Part shown: piece after piece, positions 184-7,835 of the stretch | Layout of the letters: the number at the start of each line of letters is the position of its first letter | Position numbering within the stretch: the first letter of the stretch is position 1 | IMG/VR virus record: IMGVR_UViG_2713896791_000024 | Coordinates: 1 to 7,835 of that record | DNA from: a virus | Lineage: Duplodnaviria; Heunggongvirae; Uroviricota; Caudoviricetes | Reading direction: 5' to 3' (one strand) | Length of the DNA: 7,835 bases | Notes under the pieces: generated by a model | What the model was told of the DNA's origin: nothing | What the model saw: only the letters and a program-made list of their open reading frames with translations | The model's database searches: none | Made by a program: the position numbers and the translations under genes

Positions 184-489
184 TCAATATACATTTTGCA
201 CCTTCGAGATAGTAATGACTGTTACTGTAACATGAGTTACAAACAGCTTCATACCCAGAGCTACTGATGTATCAACTCGATTCAACAATACCCGATATTT
301 ATTCCATGCCTCCAGCAACGATCTTTCTTCCTCCGTTGCGATTTCCAGATCTACAGCATCCTGCAGTGGCGCAATATACTCACTGAATTCCTGGATGTAG
401 AACTGTGTGGTGACGGTCTTCCAGCCATTCAGCTCCTGCTGTATCGAAGCATACCAGGCTATTTCAATATCGCTATGCTGCGGCAGCAT
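184..489 (-). CDS. Small ORF (101 aa) carrying a tail fibre assembly (Tfa) C-terminal motif; probable remnant or paralogue of a second tfa 3' end
   Basis: Residues ~38-76 ([40 protein letters not shown]) match the C-terminal region of the tfa product at 3002..3577 (36 of 40 residues by eye). At DNA level 265..386 aligns with 3038..3159 at about 105 of 122 positions (manual alignment), in direct orientation. ATG at 489 is immediately preceded by an in-frame stop; an AAGGGG Shine-Dalgarno-like motif lies only 3 nt upstream. The N-terminal 37 aa and C-terminal 25 aa do not resemble Tfa. Confidence 0.45.
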
Positions 490-545
490 TTAACCCCTTG
501 TAATTCATCGCCATAATTGATTTAATTCACAAATAAAACTATAAC

Positions 546-1214
546 ATGGTGAAATTAATGAAAAAAAACACAGATGATGGGGCTAAAATTTACACACCAC
601 TTACCCTAAAGCTTTATGACTGGTGGGTTTTGGGAGTATCAAATCGGCTTGCATGGGGATGTCCTACAAAGGAACACCTTCTTCCACACTTTCTGGAACA
701 TTTAGGTAACAACCATCTGGATATTGGTGTTGGAACTGGGTTTTACCTTACTCACGTACCTGAGAGTAGTCTGATATCTTTAATGGATTTGAACGAAGCT
801 AGCCTGAACGCGGCATCTACAAGGGCTGGGGAATCAAAAATTAAACATAAAATTAACCATGATGTTTTTGAACCTTATCCCGCGGCGTTACATGGTCAAT
901 TTGATTCCATTTCCATGTTTTACCTTCTTCACTGCCTGCCTGGAAATATATCTACAAAAAGCTGTGTAATACGCAATGCGGCGCAGGCCTTAACTGACGA
1001 TGGAACTCTATACGGAGCCACAATTCTTGGCGATGGAGTTGTGCACAATAGCTTCGGTCAAAAACTGATGCGCATTTACAATCAGAAAGGCATCTTTTCA
1101 AACACAAAAGATTCCGAAGAAGGCTTAACACATATACTCTCAGAGCATTTCGAGAATGTTAAAACCAAGGTTCAAGGTACTGTAGTAATGTTTTCCGCTT
1201 CAGGGAAAAAATAG
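546..1214 (+). CDS. Class I SAM-dependent methyltransferase, probably small-molecule type (UbiE/COQ5-like fold), substrate unknown
   Basis: 222-aa ORF with Rossmann-fold methyltransferase motifs read from the translation: motif I LDIGVGTG, acidic post-I LMDLN, motif II FDSISMFYLLHCL, motif III LTDDGTLYGATI. N-terminal YDWW...S...W pattern resembles the UbiE-family signature. No DPPY/NPPY motif, so probably not an N6-adenine DNA methyltransferase. Start is uncertain: ATG at 546 lacks an obvious Shine-Dalgarno, ATG at 558 has GGTGA 5 nt upstream. Visibly more AT-rich than the tail genes. Family assignment is from memory, not a search. Confidence 0.7.
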   Translation: MVKLMKKNTDDGAKIYTPLTLKLYDWWVLGVSNRLAWGCPTKEHLLPHFLEHLGNNHLDIGVGTGFYLTHVPESSLISLMDLNEASLNAASTRAGESKIKHKINHDVFEPYPAALHGQFDSISMFYLLHCLPGNISTKSCVIRNAAQALTDDGTLYGATILGDGVVHNSFGQKLMRIYNQKGIFSNTKDSEEGLTHILSEHFENVKTKVQGTVVMFSASGKK

Positions 1215-1220
1215 CATCCA

Positions 1221-1261
1221 ACCGCAGCACGTTCTTGCATAAGGCGTGTCTGCGGTTTTTC
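1221..1261 (+). terminator. Candidate Rho-independent terminator downstream of the methyltransferase gene
   Basis: ACCGCAGCACG (1221-1231) pairs with CGTGTCTGCGGT (1245-1256) with one bulged T, followed by TTTTT (1256-1260); begins 7 nt after the TAG stop at 1212-1214. Confidence 0.5.
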
Positions 1262-1579
1262 AACTATTCAGATACATCACTCCCATCACATTCATTCCTC
1301 CGCATCATAGGCATATAGGCTATATCACCTTGATATTTTTCTTCTTCAGATAAAAACTGTTATCTATGTATACTTTTAAACCCAATCCGTGTAGAGTCTC
1401 TGCATAAGATAGTTTGCAGTTGCCACTTCAGCTTGCGCCATAAACCGCCTGATTTTTGCCGCCACCTGTTAGCATTCCTGTATACCTGAAACGACAATGT
1501 TTATCTACGAACTTTAAGAACACCCAGGATAAAAATTGTCAACTATATCATATATAACACATTACTAATTCGAGGCTAT

Positions 1580-3001: not shown

Positions 3002-3577
3002 CTACGGTAGGGCTGGCCATTCAATATCCGGTGCAGTTGATGTATCAACACGGTTCAGCAACACCCGATACTTTTTCCAGGCTTCCAGCAACAAGGTTTC
3101 TTCCTCCGTTGCGATCTCCAGATCCACAGCATCCTGAAGCGGCGCAATATGCTCACTGGCTACCTGCATCAGGCTGTTTTTTGTTTCTTCCGCCTCCCGG
3201 ATCCGGAACAGTTTTTCTGCTTCCGTATCCTTCACCCAGGCTGTGCCGTTCCACTTCTGATATTCCCCTCCCGGCGATAACCAGGTAACATTTTCCGGTA
3301 ACGGACCGAGTTCAGAAATAAATAACGCGTCGCCGGAAGCCACGTCATAAACCGTTTTACCCCGATGATCTTCAACGAGATGCCACGATGCCTCATCACT
3401 GTTGAAAACAGCCACGAAGCCTGCCGGAATATCTGGCGGTGCAATATCGATACTGTTTGCTGGCAGACCTGTATGAGGCGGAATATATGCGTCACCTTCA
3501 CCAATAAATTCATTAGTTCCTGCCAGCAGATTATAAATTTTTATGGTCCGTGGTTGTTCACTCATTCTGAATGCCAT
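3002..3577 (-). CDS. tfa: Tail fibre assembly protein (lambda Tfa family)
   Basis: 191-aa product beginning [41 protein letters not shown], matching lambda Tfa as I recall it over nearly its whole length. ATG at 3575-3577 overlaps the stf stop codon (3577-3579) by one nucleotide (TAATG on the minus strand), implying translational coupling. Confidence 0.93.
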
Positions 3578-6492
3578 TATGCAAGCCTCACAATGTAGTT
3601 AAATGCGATGTTTTTGACAGTGTTTTCCGCGTTACCAGCAGCGTTAACGGTGATGGTGTGTCCATGTGAGCCAATCGCAACAGAGTGCGTATGAGCACCA
3701 ATACCGACAGTATGTGCGTGAGCACCTGCAGATGCAGCTGTGCCGCTGACACTATGAGTGTGCGCTCCTGCAGCACTTGTATTCACACTGGCCGCAGACA
3801 CTACCTTATGTACTGACCCATTTTGTGACCACTGGCTGACTGCTGATGCGCCTGTGACACTATGAGTATGGTTTCCGGCACTTGCGGCTGTACCGCTCAC
3901 ACTGTGCGTATGCGCCCCGGTGTTATTCGTGGATTTAGTGCCGTAATCAAACGACGATGTGGTTTTCGTCCCCAAATCCGTACTGGATGCACTGGCGCTG
4001 TGGGTGTGCGATTTAATGCCGTCCTGTTCCTGAGACAATACGGCCCGACCACTGGCAGGTTTGCCCTTAATCGTCCAGCCACGCATATCAGGGATCACGC
4101 CTGACGGATAAGCGGTTGCAAGTTTCGGGTAAGCGGATTTGTCAAAAGTCTGCCCCTGCATCAGGGCATAACCAGACGGAACGGTATCTGATGGCCACGG
4201 GATTGGTGCGCCAGGCGGATAAAACTGCTCTGATGGTGTATAGAGTGAATAAACTGTACCGTCCGTTAACCCTTCCGGCTTATTAGCAGAATATGCTGGT
4301 GACGTATGAATAGTCACGCTGGCATTACTGGTATAATCCCATTGAATATTTACACCAGTCGCATAATTTCCGATTGCAACGTAAATATCGTAAGTATCAC
4401 CAGATGTATTGACCCAGGCAAAATTTGTAAACCCTGTCGATGTGCGCTGCCATAAAGCACCAGTAATCCCCTTCGGATTACCATTACCTGCACGCAAAAC
4501 AAGTTCAGATATACCTGCCTGTTGAGGTGACCCCACGTTAAATCCCGCGCCACCAATCAACGTAATTGAAACAACAGAACTCGCCTGTGGCATGGTTACC
4601 GTTGCTAATTTGAACCAACCAGCACCACCGCTGAATGACATTGTTGTTGAGTTAAGCGTACCAATATCTTTCGGCGTCAGTGTTATATCCGCTGAAAGCG
4701 CCTTACCATTCACCTTACGGGCAGAAGGTACCCGACCATTCGCATTATCATTAGCTGCTTTCACTGCTTTCGGTGTCGCGGCAAGCGTTTCAGATGCGCT
4801 GTTGGTTGCACTACTGAGCTGGACAATTCCTTTTTGTGCTGTCGTAGCGTCCTGAGCAGTATATTTCCCGTTAGCAAGGTCATAGGCTGCCTTTACCGAC
4901 TTTGGCGTTGCCGCCAGCATTTCAGATGTGCTGTTGGTCGCGCTGCTGAGCTGAACTATCCCTTTCTGTGCTGTCGTTGCATCCTGTGCGGTGTATTTCC
5001 CGTTAGCCAGCTCATACGCGGCCTTAACGGCTTTTGGCGTTGCCGCCAGTGACTCGGAAGTGCTGTTAGTCGCACTGCTGAGCTGTACTATCCCCTTTTT
5101 CGTCGTGCTCGCATCCTCAAGCGCCACGGCGGATGCAATATCCTCTGCCCGTTTTGCCGCTGTCTCGGCGCGCGTTGCCGCGGATTCCGCCGTACTTTTG
5201 CTCTGAGCTGCCGCCGTCGCACTGCCAGCTGCCTCTGTCGCCTTCGTGGATGCCGTCGTGGCGCTGCCCTTTGCTGCTGACGCCTGTCTGGTCGCCTCAT
5301 CTTTTGAAGCAGACGCAGATGATGCCGATGACGCCGCCGAACTGGCGGACGATGCGGCAGCCGTTTTTGAGGATTCTGCGCTGGTTTCCGACGCTTTCGC
5401 GTTCGTCTCGGATGTCTTCGCTGCGGAAGCAGACCTCGCTGCTGCGCTGGCCTGTTCAGTGGCTTCGCCAGCCTTCGTTGTGGCTGTTGAAGCGGACGAT
5501 GCGGCGCTTTCTGCCGATTTTCCGGCAGCGGTGGCACTGGCTGAGGCCTGCCCGGCACTTGTTGACGCGGCACTGGCAGACGACGCAGCCGCTGTTTTTG
5601 AGCCTGCCGCAGCTGAGGCGCTCTGTCCCGCTGCCGTCTCAGAAGACCTGGCGTTCGTCTCGGACGTTTTTGCCGCCTTCGCGGAATTTGCTGCCGCCGT
5701 TGCCGAGGAAGCTGCGCTACTGGCGCTCGAGGATGCGTTCGTTTCTGATGATTTTGCCGCCTCTTTTGAAGCCGACGCATCCCGGGCTGAGGTGGCAGCT
5801 TCTGACGCTTTCGTGGTCGCGGTGGATGCAGAAGTGGCGGCTGATTGTTGTGACGCTGCAGCATTCGTTTCTGACGTTTTCGCGGCAGCGGCACTGGTAG
5901 CTGCCGCGCTTTTTGAGGACTCTGCAGCGGCAGCACTTTTTTCCGCTTCAGTGGCCTTTGTTGATGCCGTTCCTGCGCTGGAAGACGCTGACTGAGCCGA
6001 CGAAGCGGCCTGTCCGGCTGACGTGCTGGCTGCACGTGCTGAATCTGCAGCATCAGTCGCATGGGTTGCCGCCTCACGGGCAGATGTGCCGGCATCACTG
6101 GCTGACTTCTTCGCGGCTGCCGTGTTCTGTGCCACCACGGACGCGTTACGCGCCACCTCTTCCACCATCTGTTCAAAACGGCGCAGTGCCTCCGGACGGG
6201 CATCATCCTCCGTCATGGCACCGAGAAAATCATTCAGCGTACCGGGTTGAGAATCTTCATACACGGTGATGGTCCCGGCATGTGACGGCGGGAATCCTTC
6301 CACCAACAGAATAACGCTGTACTGCCCGTACTCAACGTCCATGCTGTAACGCCCGGCTTCATCCGGATTTTCTGAGGCCAGCGTGTTCACCACCACCGTG
6401 GTGCTGTTACGTTTTGCTTTCAGCTGGATTGTGCAGTTCTGTACCGGTTTTCCTGTGCCGTCTTTCAGTACACCTGAAATCTTTACTGCCAT
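3577..6492 (-). CDS. stf: Side tail fibre protein (lambda Stf family), 971 aa
   Basis: Starts [26 protein letters not shown], matching the lambda Stf N-terminus as I recall it. Contains a long Ala/Ser/Thr-rich fibrous region, three tandem 44-aa repeats ([27 protein letters not shown]...), and a C-terminal tip with repeated His-x-His motifs. Start is placed at the ATG at 6490-6492 (GGGGTGA Shine-Dalgarno-like motif just upstream); the ORF-track extension to 6612 reads through the N-gap and the lom terminator and is an artefact. An identical start context is duplicated after the gap at 6567-6569. Confidence 0.9.
4750..5097 (-). repeat. Three tandem copies (two full, one partial) of a 132-bp unit inside stf encoding a 44-aa phage tail fibre repeat
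   Basis: The string CTGAGCTG recurs at 4814, 4946 and 5078 on the plus strand (period 132 bp). Protein repeats [44 protein letters not shown] occur three times, the last diverging after KAVKAA. Confidence 0.8.
5100..6000 (-). repeat. Low-complexity Ala/Ser/Thr-rich region of stf with degenerate internal repeats (AAKTSETNA-type)
   Basis: The translation contains several [18 protein letters not shown]-like units within a roughly 300-aa Ala/Ser/Thr-rich stretch. GCN-rich codons generate long artefactual ORFs in other frames on both strands. Confidence 0.75.
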
Positions 6493-6503
6493 ATTCACCC
6501 CAC

Positions 6504-6553
6504 NNNNNNNNNNNNNNNNNNNNNNNNNNNNNNNNNNNNNNNNNNNNNNNNNN
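6504..6553. other. Scaffold gap (50 N) flanked by a 27-bp exact duplication; probable unresolved contig overlap rather than missing sequence
   Basis: AAATCTTTACTGCCATATTCACCCCAC occurs at 6477-6503 immediately before the N-run and again at 6554-6580 immediately after. Collapsing the duplication leaves about 64 bp between the lom stop and the stf start, close to the lambda lom-stf spacing as I recall it. Confidence 0.8.
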
Positions 6554-6579
6554 AAATCTTTACTGCCATATTCACCCCA

Positions 6580-6607
6580 CAAAAAAGCCCGCCTGAACCG
6601 GCGGGCT
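6580..6607 (-). terminator. Rho-independent terminator downstream of lom, immediately upstream of the stf ribosome-binding site
   Basis: Minus strand reads AGCCCGCC-GGTTCA-GGCGGGCT (8-bp GC-rich stem, 6-nt loop) followed by TTTTTTG; plus-strand stem arms at 6586-6593 and 6600-6607, A-run at 6581-6586. Confidence 0.75.
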
Positions 6608-6633
6608 GTCATAACTCTGTGTTACCTGGCTAA

Positions 6634-7257
6634 TCAGAATTTATAACCGACCCCCACAATGAAACCGTCAGTGCGCCAGTCGCCACTGCCGGAGCCTTCA
6701 TAAGCAAGGTCAATAACCACCGTCTCTACGGGACTGAACTGAATCCCGGCATTCCAGGCCGGCGACAGATGACGCGCAGTATGACCATCACTGGCGGTGG
6801 TGGTCTCCTTCACATACCCCGGTTTCACTTCATCACGCCGGTAATCCTGAACACTGTCAGACCAGCGGGTGTACGCCATCCCGGCCATGCCATAGAGACT
6901 GACCCGCTCACTGAGCTGCCAGACAGGGCCGGCCATCAGACTGACATAACGACCGCGCAGGCTTTCATAATGGAAGGTATTTTCACCCGTCTTCATCGTG
7001 TCACTTTTCTTCACCGATGCATAACTCAGCGCGACAATGCCGCCCAGGTGATCCGTGAACTCATAACGGTATTTCACGTTAATCCCTTTTAAATCACCTG
7101 CACGCGCACCGGTACCGGACAATGCCGGTACGCCGCCCGGGTGAACCTGAGCATATCCCACGGAAAATGCACCGTGTCCGCTTTCAGCCTGTGCAGGAAA
7201 GGCAATTCCTGCCAGCAGGGTAGTAAACAATAATATCGTTGCGTATAAATGCCGCAT
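6634..7257 (-). CDS. lom: Lom-like outer-membrane protein (Ail/Lom/PagC family 8-strand beta-barrel)
   Basis: 207-aa product MRHLYATILLFTTLLAGIAFPAQA|ESGHGAFSVGYAQ... ending ...DWRTDGFIVGVGYKF, with signal peptide and C-terminal aromatic residue; closely resembles lambda Lom as I recall it. Start chosen at ATG 7255-7257 with AAGAGG Shine-Dalgarno 5 nt upstream; the ORF-track extension to 7293 runs into the upstream terminator. Confidence 0.9.
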   Translation of the reverse strand: MRHLYATILLFTTLLAGIAFPAQAESGHGAFSVGYAQVHPGGVPALSGTGARAGDLKGINVKYRYEFTDHLGGIVALSYASVKKSDTMKTGENTFHYESLRGRYVSLMAGPVWQLSERVSLYGMAGMAYTRWSDSVQDYRRDEVKPGYVKETTTASDGHTARHLSPAWNAGIQFSPVETVVIDLAYEGSGSGDWRTDGFIVGVGYKF

Positions 7258-7281
7258 GATTACCTCTTTGTTTTCAGTCAA

Positions 7282-7306
7282 TAAAAAAGGCACCTCCTGA
7301 GGTGCC
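7282..7306 (-). terminator. Rho-independent terminator between the J-like gene and lom
   Basis: Minus strand reads GGCACCT-CAGG-AGGTGCC followed by TTTTTTATT; plus-strand coordinates 7289-7306 for the palindrome and 7283-7288 for the A-run. Confidence 0.65.
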
Positions 7307-7325: not shown

Positions 7326-7835
7326 TCAGCTGATACTGATCCCTGCTGTGGATTTTTTCATGACCACAACCAGTAAATCACTGATGTACGTTGTCGGCGT
7401 CCAGTTGTTCGCACCGGCCGACGACACATTAAACGTCAGGGTGACATGACCCCGCCCTGCCGGCATATCTATCACCGATGAGAACACCCGGCTGACATCC
7501 GTTGCCGGTTCATGGAAAATCTCAACCCCGTTCTTCAGCACCTGCAGCTTACAGGTGGAATACCAGTACGACTGCTGATTCGGGCTGTTGAAATTCTGGT
7601 GTTTCGTCCCGCGAAACAGCACCGGGGGAATGATGATCTGCCGGTCGAAGCCCTGGTCATCGTAAACTGTGACGGTTACCGTCCCGCTGGCATAACTGTT
7701 ATTCCGGGGAAAGGCTTTCCCCACCGTCTTCACCAGGTCGCCTTCAATCTGGTTTGCAGACAGTTTCCCTCTGATGACACAGTTCTCGTTAATGGTGACA
7801 TTATTGAGCGTGCCGGTATTCGCGGTAATTGCTCC
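7326..7835 (-). CDS. J: Host specificity / tail tip protein J, C-terminal receptor-binding region (5' end outside window)
   Basis: Reading frame is open from the window edge at 7835 to the TGA at 7326-7328. The translation ([19 protein letters not shown]...[12 protein letters not shown]...) resembles the lambda J C-terminus as I recall it. The ORF-track start at 7733 is an internal GTG, not the true start. Followed by lom, as in lambda. Confidence 0.85.

Follow-up and report, generated by a model that had tools for sequence, protein, structure and literature searches.

The prophage gene ybcY encodes an uncharacterised class I SAM-dependent methyltransferase carried as cargo by lambda-like prophages of Escherichia coli

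The stretch of DNA analysed here in full (7,835 nucleotides, referred to as the window) matches, at 100% identity, a lambdoid prophage that is inserted beside ompT/envY/nfrA in E. coli O103:H2 12009. Read from its right end, the minus strand carries the C-terminus of J (7326-7733), lom (6634-7293), the tail-fibre gene stf (3577-6612, a 1011-aa ORF) and a full tail-fibre-assembly gene, tfa (3002-3577). To the left of these lie four genes on the plus strand, namely an intact serine invertase of the pin family with Resolvase and HTH_7 domains (2314-2904), ydfK (1762-1995, as annotated from RefSeq and a 77-position PHROG profile), a gene for a YnaM/YnfT mini-protein (1580-1693) and a methyltransferase ORF of 222 aa with an ATG start (546-1214). 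A truncated, tfaX-like tfa fragment, a 101-aa ORF at 184-489 on the minus strand, is divergent from the methyltransferase. When called mechanically, the ydfK ORF spans 1729-1995 and encodes 88 aa from ATG1729; ydfK and ynaM/ynfT form the most AT-rich part of the window (GC 0.33-0.34). The stf protein contains a long stretch of low complexity rich in Ala/Ser/Thr, a unit of about 45 aa that is present in three tandem copies and, near its C-terminus, His-rich GAHTHS repeats, and the run of 50 N at 6504-6553 inside stf, seen as a run of X in the translation, reflects masking or an assembly gap and not biology. At the other end, coordinate mapping on NC_013353 placed the end of an upstream gene for a 494-aa alpha/beta hydrolase (Abhydrolase_1 and TAP-like) directly before window position 1, and the perfect palindrome with a 14-bp stem at 21-56, followed by a T-rich tail, is probably the terminator of that gene. 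The hydrolase gene is carried together with ompT by isolated phages such as ev243.

The tfa fragment is annotated in RefSeq as an incomplete tail fiber assembly protein. Its Pfam Caudo_TAP match is restricted to profile positions 74-121, and it shares 76% identity over 51 aa with the C-terminus of the full tfa product. At the nucleotide level the duplicated 3' end of tfa forms a direct repeat of 146 nt (251-396 and 3024-3169, 82% identity) that brackets the whole block of methyltransferase, ynaM, ydfK and pin. Recombination between these repeats would delete the block, and this may explain the alternative arrangements found in other genomes. Rfam IS009, a candidate sRNA family, matched the minus strand over the 3' end of tfa (3036-3234, 224 bits against a gathering score of 117) and, just under threshold, over the tfa fragment (263-466, 107.6 bits); this "sRNA" model lies over sequence that codes for the C-terminal part of the tail-fibre-assembly protein. 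Since a scan of the window for gix/pix-like crossover patterns came up empty and the tfa copies have a direct rather than an inverted orientation, the pin invertase has no obvious invertible segment here.

The methyltransferase ORF was initially annotated as a protein of 222 aa. The ORF is indeed of that length, but the protein is likely to be shorter. M5, the second Met, is where the homologues start, as does the PHROG profile of 218 positions, and a Shine-Dalgarno sequence, GGTGA, lies at 548-552, 5 nt 5' of ATG558; the start is therefore probably ATG558, giving a predicted coding sequence of 558-1214 and a product of 218 aa. Residue numbers of the methyltransferase, as in D77 below, count from M5. 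With a GC content of 0.407 and a GC3 of 0.356, the ORF is foreign in composition to the structural genes (stf 0.55, lom 0.53, tfa 0.49), and the AT-richness first noted relative to the tail genes thus holds (0.41 against 0.53-0.55). A search of Rfam gave no match inside the ORF. A consensus scan of the upstream region gave two candidate sigma-70 promoters on the plus strand, TTAACC-16-CATAAT at 490-517 and TTGATT-17-TATAAC at 517-545. The second of these is the sequence reported from genomic SELEX as a site for the RpoD holoenzyme, together with H-NS binding, in the ybcY/tfaX spacer of K-12 (PMC3946193). If the promoter at 517-545 were used, the mRNA would be nearly leaderless for ATG558. Downstream, six bases past the stop codon, there is an intrinsic terminator at 1220-1260 on the plus strand, consisting of a hairpin (1220-1257) and a U-run. 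The hairpin has an MFE of -22.3 kcal/mol (z = -4.27), and none of 200 shuffled sequences was as stable.

This terminator bears on the speculation that the methyltransferase forms one accessory module with the hydrophobic mini-ORF and ydfK. The three genes are adjacent and co-oriented both in the window and in phage Kati, but the strong terminator and a 320-bp spacer lie between the methyltransferase and the other two. Furthermore, the contiguous order methyltransferase-ynaM-ydfK-pin was found in only 314 genomes, against 3,799 that have the methyltransferase, and ynfT-ydfK-pinQ occurs without the methyltransferase in the Qin and Rac prophages. Homology to the methyltransferase side in other genomes stops at about window position 1255-1258, and homology of the Qin/Rac type starts at about 1205-1218. 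The blocks thus break exactly at the terminator, which is the mosaic joint. Among 80 viral contigs the gene downstream of the methyltransferase was a full tfa in 39, something else in 34 and ydfK plus pin in only 7, while the upstream tfa fragment was a constant neighbour, present in 77 of the 78 contigs that could be evaluated. We therefore regard a three-gene module as highly improbable; the methyltransferase is independent of the genes next to it.

The gene itself is already annotated. Its product is 100% identical to RefSeq WP_000239874.1, a "class I SAM-dependent methyltransferase", and is a full-length match to PHROG 2132, catalogued as "unknown function". By sequence comparison the ORF is an intact ortholog of ybcY (b0562) from the DLP12 prophage of K-12, with 98% nucleotide identity across an aligned region of 791 nt (8153-8807 of the NC_000913 extract against window 480-1270), and the two copies have in common the flanking tfa fragment and the terminator. 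In K-12 a 2-bp deletion adjoining an A8 run removes the TG of ATG558, whereas the window copy is intact, as is the 100% identical copy in O103:H2 12009; repair of the deletion in K-12 ybcY would give back an intact protein of 218 aa. This is therefore a known gene of uncharacterised function and not a new type of element. A literature search found no functional study of ybcY, of the RefSeq accessions or of the PHROG identifier. In the literature searched ybcY is mentioned only in lists or as a landmark in papers on the context of OmpT, and Hha toxicity was found to be unaffected in a ybcY mutant of K-12 (PMC2408971).

The gene had been described as not standard for a lambda-like phage and as possibly belonging to something undescribed, and beyond its RefSeq and PHROG entries its distribution speaks against this. 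With coverage of at least 80%, the ORF was matched in 3,799 of 5,426 complete E. coli genomes (about 70%), in up to four copies per genome, and all 3,837 matching records were at least 95% identical. It is also found in 15 deposited phage records, including the isolated phages Kati and Turner as well as ev243, 2G7b and the PhiR series, so viable phages carry it, and in at least 164 IMG/VR contigs, usually about 1 kb or less from the predicted end of the prophage. Many related prophages lack it. ybcY thus ranks among the commonest prophage cargo genes of E. coli. The gene can be dispensed with in the laboratory, given that K-12 has it as a pseudogene. Together with the terminator and the atypical GC content this is what is expected of a moron, the promoter being a candidate from the consensus scan and from the SELEX data on the K-12 spacer, and the original description of the gene as prophage cargo beside the tail-fibre/pin locus is upheld.

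A gene that is broken in K-12 and lies next to duplicated tfa sequence might be in decay, without a function of its own, and be carried along by the tail-fibre-assembly repeat, and truncated forms do exist in the protein collection. Against this, dN/dS values relative to the Citrobacter and Salmonella orthologues are 0.10-0.21, which indicates purifying selection, the SAM-binding and family-specific residues are all intact, and the full-length cluster comprises 6,589 member sequences, in addition to the near-identity of the E. coli records. We consider decay very unlikely, and the ybcY product is real and probably functional.

The protein is one of a broad family whose members stand alone and measure about 220 aa, and for which there is no curated model and no close solved structure. 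A word-indexed search returned 2,296 relatives, and HMMER, run exhaustively over 1.84 billion cluster representatives, returned 1,321 with E<=1e-3 and 195 with E<=1e-30; stand-alone proteins of 215-235 aa make up nearly all of them. They come from Enterobacterales, Pseudomonas, Xanthomonas, Dyella, Burkholderiaceae and Vibrio, but also from Acidobacteria, Nostoc and Arthrobacter and from fungi such as Aspergillus wentii. The longer homologues are fusions to P450 and RCC1, apparently fungal, or have other N-terminal extensions without a domain. Since the fusions appear to be eukaryotic and the extensions are domain-free, they are uninformative on function. In an alignment of 70 members, Y20, H53, G57, G61, D77, S117, H125, G153 and D185 are invariant, and W33 (69/70), N182 (69/70), C35 (68/70), C126 (68/70) and D21 (66/70) are nearly so.

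That the ORF has the motifs of a class I methyltransferase was confirmed. Four Pfam models score above their gathering thresholds (Methyltransf_12, with 39.2 bits against a cutoff of 30, and Methyltransf_23, _25 and _11), motif I is present after strand 1 as LDIGVGTG (L54-D55-I-G57-V-G59-T-G61), and the acidic residue D77 lies at the end of strand 2. An AlphaFold2 model built with the 70-sequence alignment (pLDDT 93.6, pTM 0.89) has a pair of N-terminal helices and seven strands, with a helical insert, which is conserved, separating strand 5 from strand 6. The predicted seven-stranded sheet flanked by helices, together with a profile match over the curated threshold, is what defines a class I enzyme.

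Which class I enzyme it most resembles is a separate matter. The UbiE-like N-terminal signature proposed in the initial annotation proved weak. The Pfam model for UbiE/COQ5 (PF01209, Ubie_methyltran) did not match the window protein and matched only 9 of the 70 relatives, weakly, and the best score of the NCBIfam UbiE models among the relatives (E 3e-8) was well under the cutoff. BioC (TIGR02072) gave sub-threshold matches only, in 48 of the 70 relatives (best E 1.3e-10), and no bio genes were seen near the homologues in the Pfam-annotated contexts or the neighbour clusters of 80 loci. The best Foldseek match was PmtA, the R-type bacterial phosphatidylethanolamine N-methyltransferase (PDB 8YS9; E 1.2e-11, TM 0.62-0.65), a protein of similar length. 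In both families the N-terminal helices contribute tyrosines and the loop after strand 4 a histidine, with Y12, Y20 and H125 of ybcY comparable in position to Tyr10, Tyr17 and His117 of Rt-PmtA. However, Y12, the counterpart of the catalytic tyrosine of PmtA and of the Plasmodium phosphoethanolamine methyltransferase, is not invariant in the ybcY family (present in 63 of 70 members, replaced in 7), no membrane-binding Arg-rich helix was identified in the ybcY protein, and the PmtA model NF045882 gave 16.3 bits against a cutoff of 390. The likeness to PmtA is at the level of the fold only. E. coli is not known to produce methylated PE.

A second comparison is with CysG and BelI (PDB 9FCD and 9FCE), which carry out metal-dependent carboxyl O-methylation in the biosynthesis of cystargolide and belactosin and are about 15-18% identical to the ybcY protein. 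In a partial profile alignment His125-Cys126 of ybcY fall on His122-His123 of CysG, so that the first histidine of the His-His-Asp metal motif is conserved while the second position is the near-invariant cysteine. Unlike CysG and BelI, ybcY has no biosynthetic-cluster context, and Arg22 of CysG has no obvious counterpart. A profile of the C-terminal, substrate-binding half searched against the PDB at E up to 10 gave chance matches only, for example to a flagellar cap protein, and a pairing of Asp185 with Asp191 is putative. Since the list of fold matches is flat, O-, N-, C- and S-methylation cannot be told apart by it. The earlier judgement that no characterised enzyme could be assigned stands.

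Orphan DNA methyltransferases are frequent in phages, and one of the 70 family members has a marginal match to MethyltransfD12 (E 0.0047), so that a role in anti-restriction or epigenetic control might be considered. A regular-expression search bore out the previously reported absence of DNA-methyltransferase catalytic motifs: neither (D/N/S)PP(Y/F/W), such as DPPY or NPPF, nor PC-Q is present, and an isolated ENV at 203 lacks the PC. At 218 aa there is also no target-recognition domain, no DNA methyltransferase appeared among the top 50-60 fold matches, and PADLOC reported no restriction-modification component and no defence system, giving only a marginal "mad2" match over the methyltransferase core (E 7e-4). 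A DNA substrate is thus scarcely credible, and on profile and motif evidence the protein is not a UbiE, BioC, PmtA or DNA methyltransferase.

The surroundings of the relatives are varied. The Salmonella homologue lies between a PMT_2 glycosyltransferase and cybB/ydcF/hrpA, that of Enterobacter follows a DUF4156 gene, that of Erwinia adjoins a carboxylesterase and doxX, and that of Yersinia sits amid small hypothetical genes. In Aeromonas veronii a 57% identical homologue (locus 5001-5672) is flanked by the transposase genes rve and HTH_Tnp_1, and the family therefore also moves on non-phage mobile elements. Citrobacter has a copy of 68% identity next to sodC, dinI and prophage cargo of the sopA type, and one of 90% identity next to dinI. 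When the ORFs from the 80 loci were clustered, no partner was shared between genera, and the recurrent neighbours, a methyl-accepting chemotaxis protein (MCP), GST, ABC-F and crotonase, are each restricted to a genus. A linkage to esterases in the phage, Erwinia and Enterobacter was considered and rejected, as the phage and Erwinia enzymes have no detectable similarity (BLASTP E 0.87) and Enterobacter has only the generic Abhydrolase_1 fold family in common with them. The enzyme thus works alone. The chromosomal homologues are themselves uncharacterised and their contexts variable; no housekeeping enzyme of known function and constant surroundings, which would have refuted the original reading, was found among them.

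These contexts also bear on the proposal that the enzyme methylates a macromolecule (rRNA, tRNA or protein), thereby modulating translation in the host or one of the phage's own proteins, for example the adjacent tail fibre or the chaperone of that fibre. In Salmonella, Enterobacter, Pseudomonas, Acidobacteria and fungi the homologues lie outside any phage or tail-fibre setting, and a tail-fibre substrate therefore cannot be the ancestral function. The protein is a single domain of 218 aa without an RNA-binding or recognition extension or an NPPY-type motif, and the weak matches are a minority and lie far under their cutoffs. A macromolecular substrate is accordingly unlikely in our estimation.

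We therefore favour, as reasonably likely, a model in which the ybcY product is a functional, soluble, single-domain class I SAM methyltransferase that acts on a small molecule and not on DNA, and that is carried as an autonomous moron by lambda-like prophages. The gene lies in the non-essential stretch that runs from the tail-fibre genes to the attachment site, and it would be transcribed in the lysogen from its own promoter. SAM would be bound through D55-x-G57-x-G59-x-G61, D77 and D102, with Tyr20 of the N-terminal helix holding the SAM carboxylate, and the methyl group would be passed by SN2 transfer to a nucleophilic O, N or S on a small polar metabolite or xenobiotic. The substrate pocket would be formed by the two N-terminal helices and the conserved loops LLH125-C126-LPG and YN175-x-KGIF-x-N182-x-x-D185. 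In Rt-PmtA, His117 contacts the lipid phosphate, Tyr10 is the base and Tyr17 anchors the SAM carboxylate (PMC11446283), and CysG uses its His-His-Asp motif to hold the divalent metal with which it catalyses the carboxyl O-methylation of 3-isopropylmalate (PMC11408123). It is because H125-C126 and Y12/Y20 occupy positions comparable to those of residues in these two enzymes that transfer to a polar small molecule is proposed, and we infer that the enzyme is cytoplasmic, acts on a small molecule and works through the invariant His125-Cys126 loop that follows strand β4. His125 might serve as a base or, going by the partial alignment with CysG, as a putative metal ligand together with Cys126 and Asp185. 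Among the candidate chemistries we would rank carboxyl O-methylation of a small organic acid first (Tam- or CysG-like), N-methylation of a phospho-amine or lipid head group second (PmtA- or PMT-like) and thiol or metalloid detoxification third. A bolder form of the model, in which the family is an uncharacterised class of His-Cys-Asp enzymes, possibly metal-dependent, and the prophage copy methylates a host or gut metabolite or a toxin as a lysogenic-conversion factor, is decidedly doubtful.

If that form of the model were true, the prophage copy would bring about a lysogenic conversion that serves colonisation or stress tolerance, or that interferes with competitors or with phages. The family comprises about 200 sequence clusters without any assigned substrate. 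The identity of the substrate would annotate thousands of genomes, and it would tell whether lysogenic conversion can be brought about by a methyltransferase that works on small molecules in the cytoplasm.

Among known systems, a further comparison is with the classical lambdoid morons lom, bor, sodCI and ompT. Like these, ybcY belongs to the non-essential arm, where lom and ompT are its neighbours, and combines a lower GC content with a candidate promoter and a terminator of its own, and in the prophage remnants of Citrobacter it sits beside sodC and dinI. It differs from them in its product: lom, bor, sodCI and ompT encode envelope or periplasmic virulence factors with known roles, whereas ybcY is predicted to encode a cytoplasmic enzyme.
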